From an uncultured Candidatus Saccharibacteria bacterium (GTDB lineage Bacteria; Patescibacteriota; Minisyncoccia; Phycocordibacterales; UBA9973): 64,000 nt of DNA. How positions within the stretch are numbered: the stretch's first letter is position 1; the number at the start of each line of letters is the position of its first letter. The stretch lies in assembly GCA_964646765.1 (NCBI GenBank), contig CAZYIA010000001.1, positions 274,105 through 338,104 of the forward strand, read 5' to 3'. The notes under the pieces were generated by a model that saw only the letters and a list, made by a program, of their open reading frames with translations, was not told the DNA's origin and did no database searches. This document shows positions 1,124 through 12,556 of this stretch, in pieces. A program made the translations under genes and the position numbers.

Positions 1124-1639
1124 ATGAAGTCCGATATGACAACAGAAGAGGCTTACCTAAAAGCCTACGATTTGTATAACGATGCCATTTTTAGGTACTG
1201 CCTTTTTGAAACTTCAAACCGCGAGATAGCGCTTGACCTCGCCCAAGACACTTTCATGAAAGTATGGGAGTATCTCCAAGCTGGAAACACTATCGAAAAT
1301 ATGCGGGCATTCCTCTATCGGGTAGCTGGTAACTTAGTTATCGACTATCGCCGAAAGAAAAAGGCGACTTCTCTCGATGCTCTTCTAGATGAAGGTTTCG
1401 ATGTCGGCCACGATGAAAAATCGAAGACCATTGATGTAATTGATGGCCGAAAAGTTATGGAATTAATGAATGAGATTCCTGAAAAGTATCGTGATGTTAT
1501 CATCATGCGATATGTTGAAGACCTTTCAATAAAAGAAATTGCAGAGGTAACTGGCGAAACAGAAAATAATATTTCTGTTCGCTTACACCGCGGACTCGAT
1601 CGAGTTCGTACTCTGGTTGAAGATCAGGAATCAAAATAA
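1124..1639 (+). CDS. ECF-type sigma-70 family RNA polymerase sigma factor
   Basis: 171 aa; region 2 (DLAQDTFMKVWEYL, LYRVAGNLVIDYRRKK) and region 4 HTH (LSIKEIAEVTGETENNISVRLHRG) patterns. Confidence 0.8.
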   Translation: MKSDMTTEEAYLKAYDLYNDAIFRYCLFETSNREIALDLAQDTFMKVWEYLQAGNTIENMRAFLYRVAGNLVIDYRRKKKATSLDALLDEGFDVGHDEKSKTIDVIDGRKVMELMNEIPEKYRDVIIMRYVEDLSIKEIAEVTGETENNISVRLHRGLDRVRTLVEDQESK

Positions 1640-1643
1640 CGAT

Positions 1644-2735
1644 ATGGAAAACTTTACAGAACAACTGAAAAACGCAAAAAATATCCGAATGACGGATACT
1701 GAAAAAGCTCGCATGCGCGAGACGCTGATTTCCCATATGGAAAAGTTTCCGCTTGCTGAAACTACTACCACACAGATTCGTTCCGTACCAAAGACGAGCA
1801 CGGCTTCTCCCTACAGCATCCCTTCAGTATGGAGTGGCGCGGTCTTTCTTCGAATTGCAGCTAGTGCTCTTGCGCTAGTTCTCCTGATTGGATCTTCGGC
1901 AACCTTTGCTTCTGCAAACGCTACTCCGGGTTCTCTTCTCTACCCTGTTCGAATTCACGTAAAAGAAAAAGTTGAACGTGCTCTTATAACTGCTCCAGAG
2001 AAGAAACTTGCATATGACCAAGGACGTATTGAAACTCGTATTTCAGAACTGGAAACTCTAGCTGACACTACGAACCCGGATGATACTGATGCAGTACTCA
2101 CAGCAAAAGCGGCATTTACCGAGAACCTTTCTGACTTCCAAACAACACTCAAAGAAACTGAGAGTTCTGGCCGGTTGGCAGTGAGCGTAAAAACTCGTGA
2201 ACAAGTGCTCGCTCGACTTTCAGCATATGCAGATCCAGTTGCTCCTGTTATGGCAACTATGAGCTTGGCCGCAGCAAAGACTGCTCCAGAAACTGCCGCT
2301 CCTACCCTTATGAAAACTAGCGTAAGAATGGACACAGGAGCTTCTGCTGAAGTAGAAGAAAACCAAGATACACCACTAATACCGGTTACCTCTAGTGACA
2401 AGAAGGAAAAAAATAAACTCAAAGAAAGTATTCATGAACTCTTGAAAGTTGGCCGAGAACAAATCTTGGAAACTGCTCAACGAGACGGAGCTGCTAGTAT
2501 GGAACAGCAATCTCCAGATGTAGAACCAGTAACTGATACGTTATCTGTAAATGAAAACACTGAAGCAACTAGTGAAAACGGAACTGAAGCTACTTCTACA
2601 AGTAATACAAATAACGAAGTTCCTAGATCTTCAAATAGCACAGGAACACCTAAGTCCACCTTGGAAGACTCTTTCAAGAGCACTATAACCGCAAGCGTTA
2701 ACCAATCAGCACCTATCCATACGGTTCCTCGCTAG
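1644..2735 (+). CDS. putative anti-sigma factor (single-pass membrane protein with Thr/Ser/Ala-rich extracytoplasmic tail)
   Basis: Starts 2 nt after sigma stop (track gives alternative TTG start at 1617); short cytoplasmic N-domain, one TM helix (AVFLRIAASALALVLLIGS), long low-complexity C-terminal region; position immediately downstream of ECF sigma. Confidence 0.4.
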   Translation: MENFTEQLKNAKNIRMTDTEKARMRETLISHMEKFPLAETTTTQIRSVPKTSTASPYSIPSVWSGAVFLRIAASALALVLLIGSSATFASANATPGSLLYPVRIHVKEKVERALITAPEKKLAYDQGRIETRISELETLADTTNPDDTDAVLTAKAAFTENLSDFQTTLKETESSGRLAVSVKTREQVLARLSAYADPVAPVMATMSLAAAKTAPETAAPTLMKTSVRMDTGASAEVEENQDTPLIPVTSSDKKEKNKLKESIHELLKVGREQILETAQRDGAASMEQQSPDVEPVTDTLSVNENTEATSENGTEATSTSNTNNEVPRSSNSTGTPKSTLEDSFKSTITASVNQSAPIHTVPR

Positions 2736-2746
2736 CCAACGACACT

Positions 2747-2776
2747 AAAAAAGCGGGATTTCTTCCCGCTTTTTTT
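2747..2776. terminator. bidirectional rho-independent terminator between convergent anti-sigma gene and ATPase gene
   Basis: aaaaaAGCGGGAtttcttTCCCGCTttttttt hairpin flanked by A-run and T-run. Confidence 0.6.
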
Positions 2777-5578
2777 CTATTCGAGAATACTTTTTAAAAT
2801 ATCTTCAGGAACTTCTTTTGAAGCAGTAGACTCTTTTCGAGAAACATTAGATTCTGGAGAGGTTTCAGAAACTGACTCTGGTGATGAAGTTTCTTCCTTC
2901 GCTAATTCTTGCTCACGGGCTTTTCGCTCCTCTTCTAACTTCTTTTCTTGTTCTAAGGTTCGAGCTTCGGCTTCTTCTGCCGCCTTAAGAGCTTTTTGTT
3001 TTTCTTCTTGCTCAATTTTCACAGCCGCTTCAAGTCGGGCTTTTTCTTGCTGTTCTTTCCGAAGAGCTTCTTCATGGGCTACTTTGAGGGCTTCTGCTTC
3101 TCGTTTCCGTTCTTCTTCGGCCTTACGAACAACTTCTATTTCGAGTGCCTTCTTTTCTGCCTCAAATTTTTGACGCTCCTCTTCCTGCACTCGACGAACT
3201 TTTTCGAGAGCCTCCTGCTTTTCTTTTTCAATTTTTTCTTCAAGTGCTTTCTTTTCTGCCTCAATTCGTTCTTTTTCCTCTTTAGTTTTACGTTCCCGCT
3301 CTAGTGCTTCTTGCTTTTCGCGAAGAAGAGCCTCTTCTTGAGCTGTATGTTTTTCTTCATTAATGGTAGTGGTAGTTGGATCTTCACCACGTAGGACTGG
3401 ATCTATGTTTTTTGGTTCATTAAGTTCAGCTTCCTCGGCAAGTCCAATACCAGCTTGAGAAAGGGCTGTAGCCAGCGTATTTTTTGTTTCTTCTGCTGCT
3501 TCTTTCTTAGGAGTCATGAAAACAGGAGAAGCTACTGTTGGTGCATCTTTTTTAAGTGCAGAAAGCGATATTGTTTCTTGAGGCTTTTCAATAACTGGTT
3601 CAGCTATACCTTCTTGTTCTATCGGCTTTGTAGCAACTGCTGGCTTAGCTGGAGCGCCCATTGTTTTTGAAAGCGCTTGATTTAGGATACTTCGAAGTCC
3701 AGCGGTATCGGGAGCTTTACGTTCTTTTGTTACAGGAACTTTTACTACTCGAGGTGGCGGCGTGCGTGGAAGATCATCTTTTTTTGCTCCATCCGGAGTT
3801 TTTATACTCTGAGGCACTCGAAACGCCGTTTGCACTTGCGGTTGTATTTGTACTTGAGCTTCAGATGGCTTCTTATAAGCCCCTTTCGGTAATGGCATAT
3901 CATCTTTACCAGCCTTAATAACCCCAATAGGCGGCATATCAGGCCGATCTACCACGGGACGAACTTTTGGTCGTTCGCCAGTAGATCCTCCCCAATCACT
4001 CCTTGGTTTCGAAGAACCACCGGTAAATTCAATACCGAGCGCGGCAAGTGCATCGTATGAAATATTATCTTTCTTTTCTTTTGGTGGACGGAACCCTGGT
4101 GCCGGTTCAAGTTCACCTTGCTTAATTTTAAAAAGACATTCTTTACAATAAATTGGCAAACCTGGTTCTGGTTCAAACGGAACGTAAATGGATTTTTTAC
4201 AATTAGTACATTCAGCGCGATATTTGCCAACAGCTTCACTTCCCGCATTTTCTGGGTTACTGGTTCCTTGGCCAGGCACCGTTGAACTCCAACGGTTAAT
4301 TTCCTCCTCTACATCAGTGCGCGAACGAGTATACATGCGGCGTGAAGTATCAATAATATACTGTTCGGTTTCTTTTGATTCGTGCACCTCAAGTGGCGGC
4401 AAGGTTTTTGCTGAAAATGGTCGCGAGGTAACCCCATCCACCATGAGCTTTGCATAAATATGATAGTTCGGAAGGTTTACGAAATCTTCAATGACGAATT
4501 CCGGTTCAAATTCTTTTTCGAGTGCTTCGGCATCTTCTGCGCCAACACGGAAGATGATAATTGTTCCAACGTTACCAAACACGGCATCTTTCACCGCGCT
4601 ACCAGTTTCAGTTTCAAGCTGGGCAACATATTGATGCGCAATAGTAAGACATAAGCGATATTTTCGAGCTTCTGAAAGAATAGAAGCAAATGAATCGGTT
4701 ACGAAGTTTTGGAACTCGTCTACAAAAAGATAAAAGTCTTCACGCTTATTTTCTGGAATGCGCACACGCTCCATAGCGGAAAGCTGAATTTTGGTAATGA
4801 GCATTGCACCAAGAAGTGCTGAGTTATCTTCACCAATACGGCCTTTCGACACATTAACCAGAAAGATTTTTTTCTGGTTCATAATATCGAAAATGTTTAT
4901 AGTTGAACGCTGCTGGCCCACTACGTTACGTACGATATTTGATGAAAGGAATTGACCAACTTTGTTTTGAATCGGCGCAATAGCTTCATTACGAAACTGG
5001 TCACGCCATGCTTCATATTCGTGCACCCAAAAAGCCTTCACCACAGGGTCTTTCAAATTCCCGATGATGTACTGACGATAGTCCTTATCCACTAGCATAC
5101 GCGGAATACCAAGAAGTGTGGTATTAGGCGTATCGAGAAGCGCTAAAATGGTGTTGTTCAAAATATATTCCATTCGAGACGACCATGCGTTCGCCCAAAT
5201 TTTGGTGAAAATTCCCATCAAACCTGAAGCCACCAAGTGTTTATACTTCGGGTCATCAAGTTGCATTGGGTTAAAACCAATTGGAAAATCCGTATCCGCT
5301 GGATTGAGGTATACGACATCTTCTGCACGTTCTTTAGGAACAGCCGTTATGATTTTTTCTACGAGTTCACCGTGCGGATCTACCACACAAACACCTTCAC
5401 CGGTACGGATATTCTGGATAATCATGTTCTCCAGCATCACAGACTTACCGGTACCAGATTTACCAAGCACGTACATGTGCTGGCGTCGGTCTTTACGCTT
5501 AATGCCGAAAACTTGATCCATGCCACGGAAATGTGTCCGGGCAAAATATGTAATGTCCTGGTTTAGTGGAACTTCCAT
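2777..5578 (-). CDS. soluble VirD4/TraG/TraD-like (type IV coupling protein family) P-loop ATPase with long disordered/proline-rich linker, C-terminal CxxC...CxxC zinc ribbon and K/E-rich coiled-coil tail
   Basis: 933 aa; Walker A VLGKSGTGKS followed by VDPHGE (DPKGE-like motif of VirD4/TraG), Walker B YLFVDEFQNF, TIAHQYVAQL (TraG-D_C-like xQSxxQL region); no TM helices; zinc ribbon CTNCKKSIYVPFEPEPGLPIYCKEC encoded around 4125-4225; last ~190 aa are E/K/A/R-rich heptad-like low complexity. Confidence 0.7.
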   Translation of the reverse strand: MEVPLNQDITYFARTHFRGMDQVFGIKRKDRRQHMYVLGKSGTGKSVMLENMIIQNIRTGEGVCVVDPHGELVEKIITAVPKERAEDVVYLNPADTDFPIGFNPMQLDDPKYKHLVASGLMGIFTKIWANAWSSRMEYILNNTILALLDTPNTTLLGIPRMLVDKDYRQYIIGNLKDPVVKAFWVHEYEAWRDQFRNEAIAPIQNKVGQFLSSNIVRNVVGQQRSTINIFDIMNQKKIFLVNVSKGRIGEDNSALLGAMLITKIQLSAMERVRIPENKREDFYLFVDEFQNFVTDSFASILSEARKYRLCLTIAHQYVAQLETETGSAVKDAVFGNVGTIIIFRVGAEDAEALEKEFEPEFVIEDFVNLPNYHIYAKLMVDGVTSRPFSAKTLPPLEVHESKETEQYIIDTSRRMYTRSRTDVEEEINRWSSTVPGQGTSNPENAGSEAVGKYRAECTNCKKSIYVPFEPEPGLPIYCKECLFKIKQGELEPAPGFRPPKEKKDNISYDALAALGIEFTGGSSKPRSDWGGSTGERPKVRPVVDRPDMPPIGVIKAGKDDMPLPKGAYKKPSEAQVQIQPQVQTAFRVPQSIKTPDGAKKDDLPRTPPPRVVKVPVTKERKAPDTAGLRSILNQALSKTMGAPAKPAVATKPIEQEGIAEPVIEKPQETISLSALKKDAPTVASPVFMTPKKEAAEETKNTLATALSQAGIGLAEEAELNEPKNIDPVLRGEDPTTTTINEEKHTAQEEALLREKQEALERERKTKEEKERIEAEKKALEEKIEKEKQEALEKVRRVQEEERQKFEAEKKALEIEVVRKAEEERKREAEALKVAHEEALRKEQQEKARLEAAVKIEQEEKQKALKAAEEAEARTLEQEKKLEEERKAREQELAKEETSSPESVSETSPESNVSRKESTASKEVPEDILKSILE

Positions 5579-5713
5579 TTTCTAATCCGCCTCATAGGAG
5601 AGGTTATTTAAAGTTACCTCACAAGTATACCATACTAGGCAAACGAAAGATGAGTTCTTTGACTCAAAGTTAATTTGTGTGCTTAAATTGACCGAATTTA
5701 AAAAGTGAACTAT

Positions 5714-6247
5714 ATGGAAAAAAACGTGGAATTAAATTTTGACTTAACCTTTGATGAAAGCGTAACAATTTACTTTGAAGAATCTGCGCATTCCTTCAAA
5801 ACAAAGTTTTCAGCTACCTTAATGCTTATGGCTATTGCCCACACCCATTTTCGCGGAAGTATGCACAAGGTACTCCGTAGTATTGATACTATCAACCGTG
5901 CTGATATTTTACTTTCAGGAAAAACAGTTAATGAAATAACGAAAGTAAAAAAATTTTTACGCGCACATAAACTCACAGGAACTACATACCGATACTTACA
6001 TGCGTACTGCTACAACTACTTTGTCGAAAAACCAAAGTTTATACAATACCAATCTTTAGGAGAACCTCATGCAGGTGAACTACTCTTACCGTGTGGTCTC
6101 AGATTTATATCTCTATACCAACAAAACTTACTTATCGAAGTAGAAACCTACTATGAGCAATCACTCATTAAAGACTGGGAATACGAGGAACTCCGGTACC
6201 TCATATATAAAAGTGATTTACGTCCCCATAACCCCCTTTTGAACTAA
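5714..6247 (+). CDS. hypothetical protein (no recognisable domain)
   Basis: ORF track 5705..6247 (GTG), ATG at 5714 (MEKNVELNF...); only plus-strand gene inside the ATPase/Cys-rich locus; followed by a strong terminator. Confidence 0.4.
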   Translation: MEKNVELNFDLTFDESVTIYFEESAHSFKTKFSATLMLMAIAHTHFRGSMHKVLRSIDTINRADILLSGKTVNEITKVKKFLRAHKLTGTTYRYLHAYCYNYFVEKPKFIQYQSLGEPHAGELLLPCGLRFISLYQQNLLIEVETYYEQSLIKDWEYEELRYLIYKSDLRPHNPLLN

Positions 6248-6252
6248 CAAGT

Positions 6253-6287
6253 AACAACCTGCTTTCCTCGGCAGGTTGTTCTTTTTT
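6253..6287. terminator. rho-independent terminator (AACAACCTGC-tttcctcg-GCAGGTTGTT + T6), also abuts stop of minus-strand gene 6286..7950
   Basis: 10-bp perfect stem, 8-nt loop, TCTTTTTT tail. Confidence 0.65.
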
Positions 6288-7950
6288 ATGCAAACGCTTG
6301 GTTATAACAACTTTCGCAGTAGAGAATTTCCGGTCGGTTGGGAGAATATGATGACTCAATTTTTTTATTGCAATTTGCGCATTCTCGAGTGAAGAGCTTA
6401 TTTGGCCCGCGAGCTTTAAATCGGCGCAGGTGTCGACATTCGGGACATTGCCGCGGAAGTGGAATAGAAAGTTTTTTATAGAACGTAAACTCATTTGGAA
6501 TAATGCGATAATTCTTTTTACATTCGGTACACTCAAAAATTTCTTTTACAATCTCGTCCTTTGTTTTGCCAATTGAATCTGATACATCAGCCCAGCTAAT
6601 TGTCGCTTTTCCGAATGTTCCTCGCGGCGTTTCTTCCCACTTAAAACCCTGAGCGAGAGCTTCTTCTTTCGTAAGTGGGTACTCAATCATAGCTGATGAT
6701 TCGTTATAACCGAAAGAAGAAAAAGTAGCCGGATAAAATTCACCATAACTTCCCTCTTGTTTCATTTTTGCTACTATTTCGGAGCGCAACTTTTCATATT
6801 CTTCTGGAGAATATTGCTTATTTAAGATCGTGTTTTTTGCTTTTCGAAAACCAACGCAACCAAAAATATTTTGGGAGTTTGGACAATTCACGGAGTAACC
6901 AACGAACTGAGAGCTCCAACAATAGAATCCGCAAATAACATTGGACCCTTCAATACCAGTATTCATGGTGTTGTAGAGTAACTCCGCTCCACGACCAGCA
7001 GTATTACAGTCCATGCAGTCTTTAGCCCCACGCCAAGCATGTACCGAATAGGCACAATCTTCGGCGTCATACGAATGAAAACAATGGCGATTATTTTTAA
7101 CGTTTGTCATGTAATTCCCAGTCGAATTGTAAACGTTATACACTTCGGCAAATTTTCGTGGCTGATCTTTAATAAACTCTGTAAATTGTTTTCGAAAAGC
7201 CTCTACTCCAGAATGAGTATCGAGACGAAACTCTGCTAACTTTTTTTCGTATTCTTCTTTAGAATATTGTGCATTAAAAATACAGTATTTTTGATTACGA
7301 AGATTAATACAGCCTAAACAATTAGTGCAGCCGCGACAATCCAACAAAAATGCACTATCGGTACATGAGTGGACGCTTTTACAATACTTAATTCCGTATG
7401 AATCATAGCAGTCATCAACTTCGTACGATCGTTCAACCTGTTGGGTAAATGAACAATCGACGAGATCTTTTGAAACTTGAATCCAATATGAGTGAATTGC
7501 ATCTTCATTGTTTGAACTTTCAATAACGAAATAACAATTTTTATTGTCAGCCGCGTAATTCATGTACTCACAATTAACTGCCCGCATAGAAACAAGGCCT
7601 GGTTTTGGCACTTTCATCCATAGTTCATACCACTGATCGAGAAATGGCCGCGATGGATCATAGTCCATAGCGTAATCTGCCCCGCTCCAGTCTTCCGAAA
7701 ACCAACAGTCATAACACCAAACCACATCAGGTTTATTCAGCGAAAACTGACAGATAGTATCTTTTTTACACTTATCACAAGGACGCTTATAAAAACTGCG
7801 TTCGTTGCGAAAATTAAGCCGTAATTGGGATCGGCATTCCGGACATAGTTTTGGCGGCAATACACCTATTTTTTCATAGAAGGAAAAATCATCAGGTTCG
7901 ATAACAAATTCACTATTACATTTAGTGCAAAATCGATTTTCTGTCGCCAT
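6286..7950 (-). CDS. large cysteine-rich multi-zinc-ribbon protein, paralog A (function unknown)
   Basis: 554 aa, ~45 Cys, no signal peptide/TM; N-terminal ribbon CTKCNSEFVIEPDDFSFYEKIGVLPPKLCPECRSQ; two internal Cys-rich modules ending in ...CLGCINLRNQKYCIFNAQYSKEEYEKK and ...FGCVGFRKAKNTILNKQYSPEEYEKL; C-terminal tandem ribbons CTECKKNYRIIPNEFTFYKKLSIPLPRQCPECRH and CANCNKKIESSYSPNRPEILYCESCY. Confidence 0.7.
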   Translation of the reverse strand: MATENRFCTKCNSEFVIEPDDFSFYEKIGVLPPKLCPECRSQLRLNFRNERSFYKRPCDKCKKDTICQFSLNKPDVVWCYDCWFSEDWSGADYAMDYDPSRPFLDQWYELWMKVPKPGLVSMRAVNCEYMNYAADNKNCYFVIESSNNEDAIHSYWIQVSKDLVDCSFTQQVERSYEVDDCYDSYGIKYCKSVHSCTDSAFLLDCRGCTNCLGCINLRNQKYCIFNAQYSKEEYEKKLAEFRLDTHSGVEAFRKQFTEFIKDQPRKFAEVYNVYNSTGNYMTNVKNNRHCFHSYDAEDCAYSVHAWRGAKDCMDCNTAGRGAELLYNTMNTGIEGSNVICGFYCWSSQFVGYSVNCPNSQNIFGCVGFRKAKNTILNKQYSPEEYEKLRSEIVAKMKQEGSYGEFYPATFSSFGYNESSAMIEYPLTKEEALAQGFKWEETPRGTFGKATISWADVSDSIGKTKDEIVKEIFECTECKKNYRIIPNEFTFYKKLSIPLPRQCPECRHLRRFKARGPNKLFTRECANCNKKIESSYSPNRPEILYCESCYNQAFA

Positions 7951-7968
7951 TTTTCGATTCTAGCACGC

Positions 7969-9756
7969 TTACAAATAACGTGCCTGGTAACAGCTCTCGC
8001 AGTAAATAGTTTCTGGCTTTTCTGGGGCATAGGTCGTTTCAAATTCGTTTGAGCACGCTCCAGAATGCTGGTGACCAGTTTCATCACACTGACACTTTCG
8101 GTGCCATAATTTCATCGGACCCCGAGAACGGAGACGCATGTAATGACGACAGTTTGGGCAAAGGCTAGGTAATGGCAAGCCAAGTCGTTTATAAAACTGG
8201 AGTTCCTGTGGCACTAGGCGAAACGCTTTCGAACATAAATGTCCTTCACAGGCACCTTGGTGGGCGCATTCGATAACTTCGTTTAAAATAGTACTTTCAT
8301 TTACTTCAGACAGTGAATTTGGAACAGTATCTTTACTCATCGTAATGGTATAAGACTTTTCTTCTGGTTCTTTCCAAGTAAAACCCTGGGCCAAGGCTTC
8401 TTCTTTTGAGAGTGGGTAGTAATCAAAAGCAATAGTTTCGTTGTAGGCAAACGGCGAAAGTTCAGCCGGGAAAAATTCTCCAAACTTGTATACTCTTCCC
8501 TTTCCATCTTGGTACGGCATGGCATTCATGTGCTCAATAATCTTCGGCACAAGTTTTTCGTATTCTTCTTTGGTATAGCGCTTGTTTAAAATCGAGTAAC
8601 TACCATTCTTCACTCCGACACAACCAAAGCAATTCTGGTTCGATGGTGAGTTGTAGAGATACATTGAGTTTGTCGATGACTTTGCATAAATGCAGAACGA
8701 AACATTTTGACAGCCTGAGAACACGCCAAACGAGTCATAAATGAGCTCAGAACCATGACCAGCATGTGAAGCGTTTCGAGCATCTTTTATATCACCGCCT
8801 GAAAGAAAGAAGTTTTTTAAATCTTCTGAACCAGGAACTAAATCAAAACAGTTAATACAGTTTTTAGCATTGGCAATATTATCACCGGTGCAATTAACTG
8901 ATTTAATAATGTGGGCGAAACGATGCGGAAACGTCAGCTTAAATTCCTCAAATTGCTTACGGACTTTTTCTAAGCCTAGACGAGTATCAAGCTTCAGTTC
9001 TTTTGCCTTCGCTTCATATTCTTCTTTTGAATATTCTTGGTTAAAAATGCAGTGCGATTTATTGCGGAGCGAAACACAACCAATACAGTTGTCACAATTT
9101 ACACAGTCATACAGAAACGTTGAATCCGAACAGCTTTTACAATATTGACCATAGCGAAGCTTGTAACATTCTTGCGAATCAGTACACTCGTAGCACAAAT
9201 TACATTTCTCAACCAAATATAAATCCTGACTATCACGAGAATGCATATTAAAAGTACTGTAGGAGCAATCTTCATTGTAGTCACCACCAAAAACGAGATA
9301 GCAATTTTTATTACTCTCAGTACAGTTACAGTAATCACTATTCACCGCATTCCAGTTCATGAGCGAAGGCCACGGCACTTCGCGAATTAGTTCCTTGAGT
9401 TGTTCAAAAAACGGCTTTGAAAAATCAACATCTTTGCCATAGCTATATGGATCCCAGCCATCACCCCACCAATATTCGCGATCATAAACCGTTAGTGGCT
9501 TGTCGTCAGAATAGATAGAGATTATTTTTTGACCTTCTTTTCCGGGGGCGTTATCAGTACGTCGATACAGAACATTTTGGTTGCGAAACACCATGCGGCG
9601 CACGAACTGACATTCTGGACACCAAGTTGGTGGCGGCACTTTCATTTTCTGATAAAAGGCTAAATCATCCGCATCCAACAAAAATATCTTACTGCAATTT
9701 TTACAGGCAACTTCCATATGCCTATAGTACTCAAAAATGCTCCGTATACAAACCAA
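7969..9756 (-). CDS. large cysteine-rich multi-zinc-ribbon protein, paralog B (function unknown)
   Basis: 595 aa (true start may be MEVACKNCSK at 9717); same architecture as 6286..7950: N-terminal ribbon CKNCSKIFLLDADDLAFYQKMKVPPPTWCPECQF, internal modules ...CIGCVSLRNKSHCIFNQEYSKEEYEAK and ...CFGCVGVKNGSYSILNKRYTKEEYEKL, C-terminal ribbons CSKAFRLVPQELQFYKRLGLPLPSLCPNCRH and CSNEFETTYAPEKPETIYCESCY. Confidence 0.7.
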   Translation of the reverse strand: MVCIRSIFEYYRHMEVACKNCSKIFLLDADDLAFYQKMKVPPPTWCPECQFVRRMVFRNQNVLYRRTDNAPGKEGQKIISIYSDDKPLTVYDREYWWGDGWDPYSYGKDVDFSKPFFEQLKELIREVPWPSLMNWNAVNSDYCNCTESNKNCYLVFGGDYNEDCSYSTFNMHSRDSQDLYLVEKCNLCYECTDSQECYKLRYGQYCKSCSDSTFLYDCVNCDNCIGCVSLRNKSHCIFNQEYSKEEYEAKAKELKLDTRLGLEKVRKQFEEFKLTFPHRFAHIIKSVNCTGDNIANAKNCINCFDLVPGSEDLKNFFLSGGDIKDARNASHAGHGSELIYDSFGVFSGCQNVSFCIYAKSSTNSMYLYNSPSNQNCFGCVGVKNGSYSILNKRYTKEEYEKLVPKIIEHMNAMPYQDGKGRVYKFGEFFPAELSPFAYNETIAFDYYPLSKEEALAQGFTWKEPEEKSYTITMSKDTVPNSLSEVNESTILNEVIECAHQGACEGHLCSKAFRLVPQELQFYKRLGLPLPSLCPNCRHYMRLRSRGPMKLWHRKCQCDETGHQHSGACSNEFETTYAPEKPETIYCESCYQARYL

Positions 9757-9782
9757 CGGAGGACTGTGTCAAAATAGTGACA

Positions 9783-11246
9783 CTAGATTAGCGGCTCAGC
9801 GACTTCTACTTTTTCAGCAGGCGCTCCTCCACCATCAGATTTATTACCACGAGTAATAGCCGCTTTTTCTTGAGCAGAACGAATGATGGTTGCTTCTTCT
9901 TCGGCAATAAGTTTCTTGGCGGCGTCGGCTGAGATAGCAAATTTACGACGAGAAGCTTCAATAATTTTTGTGCGAAGTGATCCATGAGCAGCTGGCAATA
10001 CTTTCAACGTTTCAGCAGAAAATGGATCATATGATTCACCGTCGATAGTCATTTTAACGTAAAACTCTCCCACACCGAGGTTAATCATATCTTTTACATC
10101 GAAAATCGGAGCAAATTCTGGTTTGAGTTTTACGGCATCATCACCACCCACGCGGAAACAGATAATAGAACCAACGTTACCGAGCACGGCTTGAGCAACA
10201 CGTGGTGTCAGCTGACCAACGTATTGGTGCGCTACCGTAAGGTTAATAGAATATTTACGCGCCTCAGAAAGAATGTTTTCGAAAGTATCGGTCACCACGT
10301 TTTGGAACTCATCCACATAGAGATAAAAATCGTAGCGCTTGTCGTGTGGAATTTTTGCTCGCGCCATACCAGCTTGCTTAATTTTGGTCAGGAACATTGC
10401 ACCGAAGAACGAAGAGTTTTCTTCACCAATCTTACCCTTACAAATGTTGATGAGCACAATTTTTTTGTTGTTCATCAGCCATTCAATGTCAATTTTGTTT
10501 TCCTTCTGGCCGAAAATGTTACGGAGCATCGGATCAGAAAGAAATTGCCCGAGTTTGTTAACAAGCGGGATAATAGCGTCGGTATCAAATTTTTCCGACC
10601 AGTCGGCGAATTCGATTGCCCAGAAGCGCTTCACCATATCGTCTTCAATGTACTCAACCACTTTTTGACGATAGTTACGGTCGGTAAGCATCGAAATCAT
10701 TCCGCGCATGGTTGCGTATGGATAGTCGAGAAGCGCGAGTGTGGTAAAGCGGAACACGTGCTCAAGACGCGGCGTCCAGTTAGCACCGAATTGCTTTTCC
10801 AACACTTCAATCAAACCTTGGGTTAGTTGGTGTTTGAATGCGGGGTCAACGTTAGCGAGCGGATTAAATGAGGCCGGATAGTCCATGTCAGACGGATCGA
10901 TGATGCATACGTCTTCCATACGGTTCTCTGGAATAAAGTCGAGAATGTCATCAATAAATTCTCCGTGCGGGTCGATGACACAAATGCCGTGGCCATAGGC
11001 AACATCCTGGCGCACCATCAGTTCCTGGAGTTTTGATTTTCCCACACCAGACTTCCCTACAATGTAGAGGTGGCGGCGGCGGTCAACGCGTTTAATACCA
11101 AAAACGTATTTCTTTTCTTCGAGAGCGGCCACATAGTTGGTGCGGCCGATAAATGACGCGTCTTCTGGAGGCACTTTACCAAACTCCGGCAGTTCTGTCG
11201 GTGGCGGCGCGTATTTAATTATTTGAATCTTATTCGCTCGTGCCAT
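9783..11246 (-). CDS. soluble VirD4/TraG/TraD-like P-loop ATPase (paralog of 2777..5578 N-terminal 480 aa, no C-terminal extension)
   Basis: 487 aa; IVGKSGVGKS, IDPHGE, YLYVDEFQNV, TVAHQYVGQL, GNVGSIICFRVGGDD - same motif order and spacing as the 933-aa protein. Confidence 0.7.
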   Translation of the reverse strand: MARANKIQIIKYAPPPTELPEFGKVPPEDASFIGRTNYVAALEEKKYVFGIKRVDRRRHLYIVGKSGVGKSKLQELMVRQDVAYGHGICVIDPHGEFIDDILDFIPENRMEDVCIIDPSDMDYPASFNPLANVDPAFKHQLTQGLIEVLEKQFGANWTPRLEHVFRFTTLALLDYPYATMRGMISMLTDRNYRQKVVEYIEDDMVKRFWAIEFADWSEKFDTDAIIPLVNKLGQFLSDPMLRNIFGQKENKIDIEWLMNNKKIVLINICKGKIGEENSSFFGAMFLTKIKQAGMARAKIPHDKRYDFYLYVDEFQNVVTDTFENILSEARKYSINLTVAHQYVGQLTPRVAQAVLGNVGSIICFRVGGDDAVKLKPEFAPIFDVKDMINLGVGEFYVKMTIDGESYDPFSAETLKVLPAAHGSLRTKIIEASRRKFAISADAAKKLIAEEEATIIRSAQEKAAITRGNKSDGGGAPAEKVEVAEPLI

Positions 11247-11281
11247 AGGACTTGAAATTTATTATATCACGCTTCGCAAGC

Positions 11282-11307
11282 AAAAAACCGCTCTGGGGCG
11301 GTTTTTT
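11282..11307. terminator. bidirectional rho-independent terminator downstream of gdh
   Basis: aaaaaaCCGCtctgggGCGGtttttt. Confidence 0.65.
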
Positions 11308-11326
11308 GCTTCTAACGGTAAAAATA

Positions 11327-12556
11327 TTAGAGCTTATACCCCATAGCCTCGGCAATACGCTCCATGGCCACGATAAAAGCTGCTCGGCGAAGATCAGTTT
11401 TAAGAGTCTCGGCACGCTCGTAGATAGCCAATGTTTCGCGAGTAAGCTGTTCGTTCAATTTTGAGAATACATCGGCTTCAGTCCAACGTTCACCGGAAAG
11501 ATTCTGTTCCCATTCATAGGTTGAAACGGTTACACCACCAGAGTTTGCCAAAATATCTGGTACTACTGGAACACCGCGAGAAAAGAATACTTCGTCAGCA
11601 TCAGGAGTAATTGGACCATTGGCAAGTTCAAGAATAAACTTTGCTTTTACATGCGGAGCATTTTTGTCAGTGATTTGATTTTCCAGTGCAGCGGGAATAA
11701 GCACATCACATGGAAGCTCAAGGAGTTCTTCGTTAGTTACTGTTTTTGCTCCAGGAAAACCTGCGAGGGTTCCCTTTTCTTTTTTATACGCAAAAACATC
11801 AGCCATCTTAAATCCGTCTTCCTTATAGATACCACCCTTTGAATCAGAAATTGCTACGATAGTGTAACCTTCACGTTCAAAAATTTCTCCAGCGTTGCCA
11901 CCAACGTTACCCATACCTTGGATAACAACCTTGGCACCTTTTACAATTCCATATTTTTCAGCGAGTGTGCGAAAAACGTAGTAACCACCCAAACCAGTTG
12001 CGGGACCACGACCTTCACTACCACCAACTTCAAGCGGTTTGCCGGTAAATGTTGCATTTGTTTTGTCGCCAGAAATTTTGGCGAATTCGTCTACCATCCA
12101 AGCCATAATTTCTGGCGTGGTGTTTACATCAGGAGCCGGAACATCTTTTTGCGGGCCAAGAATTGGGGCCATACCACGAACCCAACCTCGTGAAAGTGCT
12201 TCGAGTTCTTTTTTAGAAAGTTCTTTTGGGTTTACCGTGATACCACCCTTTCCCCCGCCCATCGGGATATTAGCGACAGCACACTTAAGCGCCATCCAAA
12301 ATGCGAGGGCACGCACTTCATTAATATCAGTATCTTGATGATAACGGATACCACCTTTGTATGGACCCCGAGCATTGTTATGTTCAACACGGTAGCCTTC
12401 AAACACTTTAGTGTCACCAGTATCCATTTTTACCGGAATAGAGATTCGCACTTCGCGCTGTGGTTGCGAAAGTTCAGCAAGAAATGCTGGCGGAAACTGA
12501 CGTACAACAGTGGCACGAGAGAGTTGCATGAGGGCATTTTCGAATGGATTAGACAT
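11327..12556 (-). CDS. gdhA: NAD(P)-specific glutamate dehydrogenase
   Basis: 409 aa; Glu/Leu/Phe/Val dehydrogenase signatures incl. GGGKGG active-site region and GMGNVGG dinucleotide-binding motif. Confidence 0.9.
   Translation of the reverse strand: MSNPFENALMQLSRATVVRQFPPAFLAELSQPQREVRISIPVKMDTGDTKVFEGYRVEHNNARGPYKGGIRYHQDTDINEVRALAFWMALKCAVANIPMGGGKGGITVNPKELSKKELEALSRGWVRGMAPILGPQKDVPAPDVNTTPEIMAWMVDEFAKISGDKTNATFTGKPLEVGGSEGRGPATGLGGYYVFRTLAEKYGIVKGAKVVIQGMGNVGGNAGEIFEREGYTIVAISDSKGGIYKEDGFKMADVFAYKKEKGTLAGFPGAKTVTNEELLELPCDVLIPAALENQITDKNAPHVKAKFILELANGPITPDADEVFFSRGVPVVPDILANSGGVTVSTYEWEQNLSGERWTEADVFSKLNEQLTRETLAIYERAETLKTDLRRAAFIVAMERIAEAMGYKL

Follow-up and report, generated by a model that had tools for sequence, protein, structure and literature searches.

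The window analysed here, a 64,000-nt stretch of Patescibacteria DNA (contig CAZYIA010000001.1), carries at positions 2777-11246 four minus-strand genes that encode two soluble ATPases related to type IV coupling proteins (T4CPs) and, between them, two tandem cysteine-rich proteins that we designated CysA and CysB. The pairing of such ATPases with Cys genes is a real conserved module, which we detected only in Patescibacteria. A first-pass annotation made from the sequence alone had read the locus as a coupling-protein-like motor tied to metal-binding proteins, and our analysis supports and extends this reading. The four open reading frames (ORFs) that it called at the locus stand, as does the 18-65 nt spacing proposed for ATPase2, CysB and CysA. 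ATPase2 and CysB are 65 nt apart (counted from the CysB ATG at 9717), CysB and CysA are separated by 18 nt, and 707 nt lie between CysA and ATPase1. The genes and their conserved parts are the following:

9783-11246, minus strand: ATPase2, 487 aa, a soluble T4CP-type P-loop ATPase
11034-11057, minus strand: Walker A motif of ATPase2
10959-10973, minus strand: DPHGE motif of ATPase2
10299-10313, minus strand: Walker B motif (DEFQN) of ATPase2
10221-10232, minus strand: AHQY motif of ATPase2
7969-9717, minus strand: CysB, 582 aa from the ATG at 9717, a cysteine-rich zinc-ribbon and beta-solenoid protein
6286-7950, minus strand: CysA, 554 aa with 36 cysteines
7834-7929, minus strand: first treble-clef ribbon of CysA (C8/11/36/39)
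7705-7779, minus strand: first CxxC-x17-CxxC ribbon of CysA (C58/61/79/82)
6436-6531, minus strand: second treble-clef ribbon of CysA (C474/477/502/505)
6307-6381, minus strand: second CxxC-x17-CxxC ribbon of CysA (C524/527/545/548)
2777-5578, minus strand: whole ORF of ATPase1, 933 aa
4289-5578, minus strand: motor domain of ATPase1 (about aa 1-430), with Walker A at 5441-5464, DPHGE at 5366-5380, Walker B at 4706-4720 and AHQY at 4628-4639
4136-4210, minus strand: CxxC-x17-CxxC zinc ribbon of ATPase1 (aa 457-481)
2777-4135, minus strand: tail of ATPase1 (aa 482-933) and stop codon

CysA and CysB are tandem paralogs, as initially proposed, with 39% identity end to end (E 2e-138). They are not the giant proteins with about 45 cysteines each that had been described: their sizes are just 554-582 aa, and they contain 36 (CysA) and 37 (CysB) cysteines, for a family median of 34 and a cysteine content of 6.5%. 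The CysB count refers to the longest ORF, which starts from a TTG at 9756 (595 aa); an identical database protein (P0241) uses the ATG at 9717. CysA begins with a treble-clef ribbon and a CxxC-x17-CxxC ribbon, continues with the solenoid segments and a conserved YGEFFP..SPFGYNE segment, and ends with a second ribbon pair in the same order. Its core has two beta-solenoid segments, a conserved C-x2-C-x2-C-x2-C ladder at residues 205-214 and an FGCxGLRxKxYCILNKxY motif. In CysB, whose orthologs are 47-77% identical, the second N-terminal ribbon is degenerate and the C-terminal ribbons have His/Cys-rich insertions. Arg/Lys-rich helices such as CPECRHLRRFKARGPNKL come after the ribbons of the Cys proteins, which have a median isoelectric point of 6.5 and a median net charge of -3.

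The core of the Cys proteins is not covered by any Pfam or NCBIfam model, a sequence search of the PDB was empty and we found no solved structural relative of the family. The closest likeness is to cysteine-laddered beta-helices such as the spruce budworm antifreeze protein (1m8n) and the ryegrass ice-binding protein (3ult), with about 15% coverage, 6% identity and no significance in Foldseek. Unlike CysA, these and the left-handed beta-helix proteins lack flanking zinc-ribbon pairs. Furthermore, the disulfide-bonded proteins of the 1m8n/3ult type are located outside the cell, whereas a signal peptide is missing from CysA.

The CxxC-x17-CxxC ribbon (TIGR04272; Pfam zf_Tbcl_2) is common to the two families: ATPase1 carries a ribbon of the module type that makes up the terminal ribbons of CysA and CysB. 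The spacing of the four cysteines is exact in ATPase1 and twice in CysA. ATPase1 scored 33.4 bits with zf_Tbcl_2 (cutoff 27) and 33.5 bits with TIGR04272 (cutoff 36); the CysA ribbons fell below the Pfam cutoffs (20.4 versus 24 and 16.9 versus 27). The ribbon follows the motor domain directly in 40 of 43 ATPase1-class ORFs of other loci but in none of the 89 ATPase2-class ORFs. The described examples of this domain and of zf_Tbcl that we consulted are stand-alone small proteins; here, in contrast, the ribbons cap a 550-aa solenoid or trail a motor ATPase. The domain binds zinc in small proteins of Methanosarcina mazei, as measured by inductively coupled plasma mass spectrometry (PMC12704099).

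Beyond the ribbon, ATPase1 continues with a Pro/Ala/Lys-rich low-complexity stretch and a long Glu/Lys-rich helical segment. This tail is weakly conserved (28-57% identity in L025, L031, L053 and L079). The AT skew falls to -0.35 across the tail (3001-4000), a region in which we found no tandem DNA repeat. Three short-read metagenome contigs with an identical ATPase2 (L159-L161) all end about 620 nt into ATPase1.

Conservation of the ATPase-Cys module across Patescibacteria

The linkage was evaluated in two sets of loci: 80 metagenome loci anchored on the best ATPase2 matches (75-86% identity), which are not phylogenetically independent, and 78 genome loci anchored on Cys genes. Cys genes were present in 61 of the 80 ATPase2-anchored loci and in 30 of the 33 that had at least 3 kb on both flanks, showing that the two families co-occur outside the genome of the window. 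A Cys gene lay no more than 1 kb from ATPase2 in 57 loci of this set and ATPase1 was also present in 35, with every one of the 171 Cys and ATPase1 matches on the ATPase2 strand. In the reciprocal set, 23 of the 78 Cys-anchored loci had a complete ATPase ORF (about 30 when partial tblastn matches are included by eye), nearly always co-oriented with the Cys genes, and ATPase2-Cys(n)-ATPase1 was a recurrent gene order. Adjacent core genes were co-directional in 316 of 319 pairs, with a median gap of 43 nt between Cys genes. The pairing also holds with ATPases only 41-53% identical to those of the window (loci labelled Gracilibacteria and Liptonbacteria).

The module resides in three flank contexts. 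In the first, it lies inside a chaperone operon on a single strand (dnaK-ATPase1-Cys(n)-ATPase2-dnaJ), with gaps of 7-128 nt between ATPase2 and dnaJ (31 loci) and of 20-83 nt between dnaK and ATPase1 (9 loci). Examples are L097, L106, L107, L112, L113, L118, L125, L127 and L128, as well as L130, L137, L138, L143, L145, L152, L154 and others. A divergent PaaX-like regulator lies upstream of dnaK in this context. The second context comprises SecF, a sigma-region-4/HARE-HTH protein, two proteins that we named c459 and c172, ATPase2, sometimes CutA1, and then Cys(n). The third is that of the window itself, with gdhA. The CutA1 gene follows ATPase2 directly in 15 loci and lies inside Cys arrays in others, for about 25 loci in total (e.g., L012:11738-12175 and L085:15881-16189), on the strand of the module. 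The gene cysS is another recurrent neighbour. None of dnaK, dnaJ or CutA1 was found in the window.

The ATPases and Cys genes could in principle be unrelated neighbours kept together by shared ancestry. The interdependence of the 80 loci, which were chosen as best ATPase2 matches, is compatible with such historical synteny, as is the lack of an ATPase within 10 kb in 55 of the 78 Cys-anchored loci. Arrays without an ATPase are, however, expected from genomes that have many arrays and only about two ATPases. Furthermore, the linkage persists across the three flank contexts and at 41-53% ATPase identity, the matches are all on one strand with short gaps, and both families share a ribbon domain. 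A pairing that stays constant while its flanks change, together with the common ribbon, points to a functional link rather than to inherited synteny, and we give coincidental neighbourhood an almost negligible probability.

The chaperone context raises the question of a role in proteostasis or metal homeostasis, in which the Cys proteins would be zinc or redox buffers or holdase-like co-chaperones that the ATPases remodel or assemble, and which would be expressed with DnaK/DnaJ and CutA1. Consistent with this are the placement of the module inside the dnaK-dnaJ operon of one lineage, the location of CutA1 (annotated for divalent-ion tolerance) directly after ATPase2, the recurrence of cysS and the zinc binding of the Methanosarcina ribbons. 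However, the dnaK/dnaJ context is limited to that one lineage (its ATPase2 proteins are 79-98% identical to each other) and is absent from the window and from the SecF-type loci. A search of the window for the CIRCE heat-shock operator was also negative, leaving HrcA control unsupported here. To our knowledge, no ATPase of the T4CP family has been implicated in protein folding, and the cysteine content of metallothioneins is far above the 6.5% of the Cys proteins. These considerations make a chaperone or metal-buffering function doubtful.

The Cys family is large. A profile search returned at least 5,095 clusters (50% identity) at E<=1e-3 and 2,256 at E<=1e-30; the matches listed carried no functional name, and the named sources were entries labelled 'hypothetical protein' from Patescibacteria (candidate phyla radiation) lineages. 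One exception was L005 (JAMPXW010000001.1, a 276-kb contig), which comes from a metagenome-assembled genome (MAG) labelled Burkholderiales and has Cys genes 64% identical to CysA; its label is probably wrong. ATPases 75-87% identical to those of the window are found in many MAGs that bear the label 'uncultured Candidatus Saccharibacteria', and the taxonomic labels of such Burkholderiales and Saccharibacteria MAGs are probably unreliable.

In the 78 Cys-anchored loci, the Cys genes are arranged in tandem on one strand, with up to nine complete copies per array, and the arrays often run beyond the edge of the locus. For example, at least 13 Cys genes, each about 1.7 kb long, lie in a 38-kb span of a 45.7-kb contig (L035 and L068). 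The two Cys genes of the window are at the short end of this range. Paralogs within a locus share a median identity of 39%, compared to 61% for the best match in another genome, and 95% of the Cys genes are nearer to a gene in another genome than to those of their own array. This indicates that the paralogs are ancient and individually conserved. The ribbons and the three core motifs are conserved across paralogs, and the solenoid surfaces vary.

Relationship of the ATPases to type IV coupling proteins

ATPase1 and ATPase2 are paralogs (47% identity over 418 aa, E 1e-136) and carry the GKSGxGKS, DPHGE, DEFQN and AHQY motifs in the same order, the VirD4/TraG series that had been noted at first. 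The residues of these motifs are invariant among 57 homologs and align with the motifs of TrwB. Both proteins exceed the Pfam gathering scores for TrwB_AAD_bind, TraG-D_C and DUF87, and ATPase2 also passes that of T4SS-DNA_transf. The scores of ATPase2 were 31.0 bits for T4SS-DNA_transf (cutoff 20.1), 30.1 for TrwB_AAD_bind (cutoff 20.5) and 36.2 for DUF87; those of ATPase1 were 58.2 for TrwB_AAD_bind (cutoff 20.5) and 35.8 for TraG-D_C. The equivalog- or subfamily-level T4CP models of NCBIfam were all missed (51 bits at most, versus cutoffs of 250-650), with weak matches that include CedD and conjugative TraD. Searching the PDB by sequence returned only a weak match to TrwB.

The AlphaFold2 model of ATPase2 (pLDDT 77.5) places a helical block (residues 135-245) between Walker A and Walker B. 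The top Foldseek matches of this model were TrwB chains (E 6e-13, about 400 aligned columns, target template modelling (TM) score 0.56-0.65), followed by HerA, Cag-beta, the C-domain of DndH and DotL. Thus, by motif order and by a modelled TrwB-like fold, the ATPases are relatives of coupling proteins. They share the P-loop motifs and the all-alpha insertion between Walker A and Walker B with the T4CPs TrwB of R388, VirD4, TraD/TraG, PcfC, Cag-beta and DotL. Unlike T4CPs, they lack an N-terminal transmembrane domain and are not linked to virB4, to a relaxase or to a mobile element. Furthermore, they are two very conserved chromosomal paralogs, one of which (ATPase1) gained a ribbon and a tail of about 450 aa.

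The matches to HerA reflect the FtsK-HerA fold that the ATPases have in common with the HerA-NurA, SIR2-HerA, DUF4297-HerA and DndFGH systems (Foldseek E 1e-12 to 1e-8). The target TM score is 0.69 for the DndH C-domain against the ATPase2 model and 0.38-0.50 for HerA, the latter below the values of up to 0.65 for TrwB. The structural comparison favours the coupling protein TrwB over HerA or FtsK, in line with the assignment that had been made from the motifs. Walker A starts as early as residue 39 (ATPase1) or 64 (ATPase2), and the 38-63 residues that precede it leave no space for the HAS-barrel domain of HerA. Nor does the module include a nuclease or a NurA, SIR2, DUF4297 or Dnd partner.

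The module could alternatively serve in anti-phage or anti-plasmid defence, with a HerA- or T4CP-like ATPase acting together with diversified sensor proteins. PADLOC matched both ATPases to mad8 (E 1e-11) and, weakly, to HerA, and their structural neighbours include SIR2-HerA, DUF4297-HerA and DndH. Tandem arrays of paralogs can mark diversifying sensors, and c172 has a weak HEPN-like R-N-x3-H motif. However, the PADLOC matches are partial and confined to the ATPases; the Cys proteins have neither a PADLOC match nor an effector domain. The search for ATPase2 homologs scored at least 8,000 candidates, all significant, of which the best 120 were 79-100% identical, unlike patchy, fast-evolving defence genes. 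The Cys paralogs are likewise ancient and conserved rather than recently diversified, a viral-contig scan had no homologs of either family and the ATPase relatives in phages are only distant (21-27%). A defence function is, for these reasons, very unlikely.

The absence of transmembrane helices that had been predicted for both ATPases is borne out by their hydrophobicity (maximum Kyte-Doolittle 19-residue mean of at most 1.3, against a threshold of 1.6). The corollary that the system has no membrane anchor stands for the window and is qualified elsewhere by c459, a separate protein of about 459 aa with transmembrane helices that is encoded immediately upstream of ATPase2 in about 26 loci (e.g., L034:670-2049). 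The profile phrog_5156 spans both partners: c459 matches its positions 80-290, and the ATPases match positions 400-824 (E 2e-67 for ATPase1 and 8e-51 for ATPase2). In addition, c459 matches the N-terminus of gp156 of Bacillus phage G (BLASTP E 6e-6); its direct comparison with an 812-aa Embleya plasmid protein (WP_331738717) was not significant (E 0.5). Both gp156 (825 aa) and the Embleya protein are single polypeptides with the ATPase as the C-terminal half, and they are 27-29% identical to the window ATPases (tblastn). The correspondence of c459 to the N-terminal part of gp156 and phrog_5156, and of the ATPases to the C-terminal half of the fused relatives, suggests that the patescibacterial ATPases were split from a monoderm coupling protein. 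Judged by these alignments, they look like a split and duplicated derivative of it.

The second membrane protein, c172 (about 172 aa; e.g., L114:2490-3008), could, like c459, be assigned to no family; it has one transmembrane helix and a partly conserved W..H..RN.LVH motif. A HEPN_Swt1 match in one of 13 members (E 0.037) is a hint and did not lead us to classify c172 as a HEPN nuclease.

The fused relatives occur in a type IV secretion system (T4SS) setting. In phage G, gp156 adjoins the VirB4-like gp155 (L162, 87999-97159), and the Embleya protein belongs to a monoderm T4SS cluster with PrgI, VirB4-like, relaxase-like and NlpC-P60 genes. While the fused phage G, Embleya and phrog_5156 proteins are encoded beside VirB4-like, PrgI-like, relaxase-like and cell-wall hydrolase genes, the window ATPases stand alone beside Cys genes. 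Other large Bacillus and Lysinibacillus phages (e.g., CP-51, Shanette and CampHawk) also carry related proteins, which are labelled hypothetical or have unrelated names. Neither a phage nor a plasmid origin of the module was retained. A scan of viral contigs with the ATPase profile was empty, the phage collection yielded only ATPases 21-27% identical, and the relatives on plasmids are at most 35% identical, with 209 of these 248 on plasmids typed non-mobilisable. Relatives of the Cys family were absent from both the phage collection and the plasmids.

As had been reported for the window, we found no relaxase, VirB4 or pilin in it; tblastn of the VirB4-like, PrgI-like and relaxase-like proteins of Embleya and phage G gave no match there either. 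Close homologs in the Patescibacteria loci recovered here likewise had neither a relaxase nor VirB4 nearby, whereas distant homologs (29% identity) are found in a monoderm T4SS cluster, as expected for the coupling-protein family. Patescibacterial T4CP homologues that are not linked to virB4 have been published: 5,713 VirD4-type homologues in 2,918 Patescibacteria genomes, or about two per genome, of which just 148 are near virB4 (Quinonero-Coronel et al., 2025; PMC12102498). The authors stated that exaptation of these homologues was 'not ruled out' (PMC12102498).

Surroundings of the module in the window

Two further features lie in the 707-nt gap between CysA and ATPase1:

6253-6280, between convergent CysA (minus) and orphan ORF (plus): bidirectional hairpin of 10-11 pairs
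5714-6247, plus strand: orphan ORF, 177 aa from the ATG, between CysA and ATPase1

The orphan ORF is the only plus-strand ORF in the gap, as noted in the first-pass annotation. It is annotated as a gene on three metagenome contigs with an identical ATPase2 and has a plus-strand terminator directly 3' of its stop codon. We found no homolog of it among 158 related loci, phages and plasmids, and in the relative L079 a gap of only 90 nt takes its place. We treated the ORF as a lineage-specific insertion, and it probably lies outside the module. In certain other loci, an opposite-strand membrane gene (c196) occupies the position.

The transcriptional layout proposed earlier holds in part. The hairpin at 6253-6280 is present where a strong terminator of CysA had been placed, but its clean T-run is on the plus strand and makes it a better terminator for the orphan ORF than for CysA. 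Separate transcription of ATPase1 is plausible at most, since the region proposed to initiate it (5579-5704) has no recognisable sigma-70-like promoter on the minus strand. Upstream of ATPase2, TGATATAAT (11261-11269, minus strand) is by its letters an extended -10 box that ends 14 nt from the start codon, with no Shine-Dalgarno sequence in between; a similar sequence, TGCTAGAAT, lies upstream of CysA. This pattern may reflect short-leader or leaderless transcripts with internal promoters.

Housekeeping flanks had been described for the locus and were recovered, with gdhA upstream and, downstream, a convergent pair encoding an extracytoplasmic function (ECF) sigma factor and a DUF5667 protein. 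This pair (1124-2735, plus strand; the DUF5667 protein is anti-sigma-like) converges on ATPase1 and is kept there in L006, and L081 has a sigma-factor homolog at the same position. The flanking genes, and the ten largest of the remaining ORFs in the window, were sampled and have housekeeping functions: UvrA, UvrC, a Mur ligase, penicillin-binding proteins, a class II aminoacyl-tRNA synthetase (Asp/Lys/Asn type), PurA and IMPDH. No additional copy of the ATPase or Cys family was found within the window. The GC content ranges from 0.38 to 0.48 without a sharp boundary. With these flanks (gdhA, ECF sigma, uvrA and uvrC), no composition boundary and no relatives in the viral-contig scan, the locus does not resemble a conjugative or mobilisable element. 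A scan of positions 2000-12000 against Rfam produced a single sub-threshold match, to the small RNA Bp1_162 (2677-2776, minus strand; 31 bits versus a gathering score of 50, E 0.037). The match, which lies directly 3' of the ATPase1 stop codon, is probably due to chance or to a terminator-like structure.

Possible functions of the module

We propose, with a probability of about 0.35, that the coupling-protein-derived motors handle or deliver the Cys proteins via their ribbons. In this model, the module would consist of two T4CP-derived ATPases and a multigene family of metal-binding Cys proteins made in the cytoplasm, each with zinc-ribbon pairs at both ends of a cysteine-laddered beta-solenoid. 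The ATPases would form TrwB-like rings and recognise the Cys proteins through the conserved terminal ribbons, one of which ATPase1 has in cis. Using ATP, they would then handle the Cys proteins, either as clients or as cargo, on the inner side of the membrane. In other lineages, c459, the counterpart of the N-terminal domain of the fused phage relatives, and c172 could provide the membrane link. The likeliest destination would be the envelope or a patescibacterial T4SS encoded elsewhere in the genome. The analysis itself shows the homology and fold of the ATPases, the paralogy, the linkage of the genes, the ribbon common to both families and the split membrane domain; that the ATPases form rings, contact the ribbons and translocate the Cys proteins, and where to, is what we infer.

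The arrangement resembles the virD4-bep locus of Bartonella, in which tandem paralogous effectors with a conserved terminal module and a variable remainder are encoded beside a coupling-protein gene. The likeness, tandem paralogs next to a T4CP gene, is a resemblance only. Bep effectors have a BID domain and a positively charged tail, and their genes are beside a full virB operon; the Cys proteins, by contrast, have acidic C-termini and zinc ribbons.

Several observations weigh against client handling or delivery by the ATPases. Over their final 30 residues, the Cys proteins carry a median net charge of -3, and these acidic ends are not the Arg-rich tail of classical VirB/D4 substrates. The three to four tetra-cysteine sites and the cysteine ladder of each protein would make threading through a channel awkward. 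Within 10 kb, no VirB4-like, PrgI-like or relaxase-like match was detected by tblastn, which has limited sensitivity, in 161 Patescibacteria loci with ATPases closely related to those of the window, and both c459 and c172 are absent from the window. ATPase2 is, moreover, more conserved than GdhA between the same genomes (84% versus 76% identity in one pair and 79% versus 65% in another), and the ancient, conserved Cys paralogs look more like core machinery than like arms-race effectors. In Southlakia epibionticum, the T4CP homologue was reported to be dispensable, whereas other T4SS genes were essential (PMC12102498).

Some of these observations would fit an intracellular nucleic-acid motor, with T4CP-like rings moving DNA or RNA in the manner of TrwB, FtsK, HerA and DndH and the cytoplasmic Cys proteins serving as interchangeable zinc-ribbon adaptors for loading or targeting the motor, a job that the ribbon of ATPase1 would do in cis. 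Among the close structural relatives, DNA translocases (TrwB, HerA and the DndH C-domain) are in the majority, although Cag-beta and DotL serve effector secretion; the weak NCBIfam matches to CedD and conjugative TraD also fit such a motor. The Arg/Lys-rich helices like CPECRHLRRFKARGPNKL after the ribbons are also consistent with this role. Furthermore, a ribbon on ATPase1 itself speaks for a common ligand and against a secretion signal, and the fact that ATPase2 and the individual paralogs are so deeply conserved suggests a core role in the cell. On the other hand, the Cys proteins are mildly acidic, the neighbourhoods show no recurrent nuclease, recombinase or helicase, and the membrane partner c459 points to the envelope. 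There is also no evident need for 10 or more conserved adaptor paralogs in a reduced genome. We regard a nucleic-acid motor as the main rival of the proposed model, possible if on the unlikely side.

The Cys family could, tentatively, be the dedicated cargo or the exchangeable working subunits of an undescribed machine, so far seen only in Patescibacteria, that the two coupling-protein-derived ATPases would power. The ATPases belong to a known superfamily, but the Cys family, its arrays, the shared ribbon, the split anchor and the chaperone-operon context appear undescribed; we found no description of the Cys family or of its linkage to the ATPases in open-access papers and preprints. The work draws attention to a large protein family without a core model in Pfam or NCBIfam and without a solved structural relative.

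Patescibacteria genomes are very small, typically <1 Mb according to the consulted part of a 2025 review (PMC12857230), yet many spend much coding capacity on the Cys family. This investment, together with a constraint on ATPase2 above that of a housekeeping dehydrogenase, implies an important function. The same part of the review presents the patescibacterial T4SS as essential for epibiotic growth on the host and does not describe its substrates (PMC12857230). The linkage reported here offers concrete candidate partners for the ATPases and candidates for T4SS substrates. If the proposed machine is real, the Cys family would be the missing substrate set of the essential patescibacterial T4SS or part of a new intracellular polymer-handling motor.

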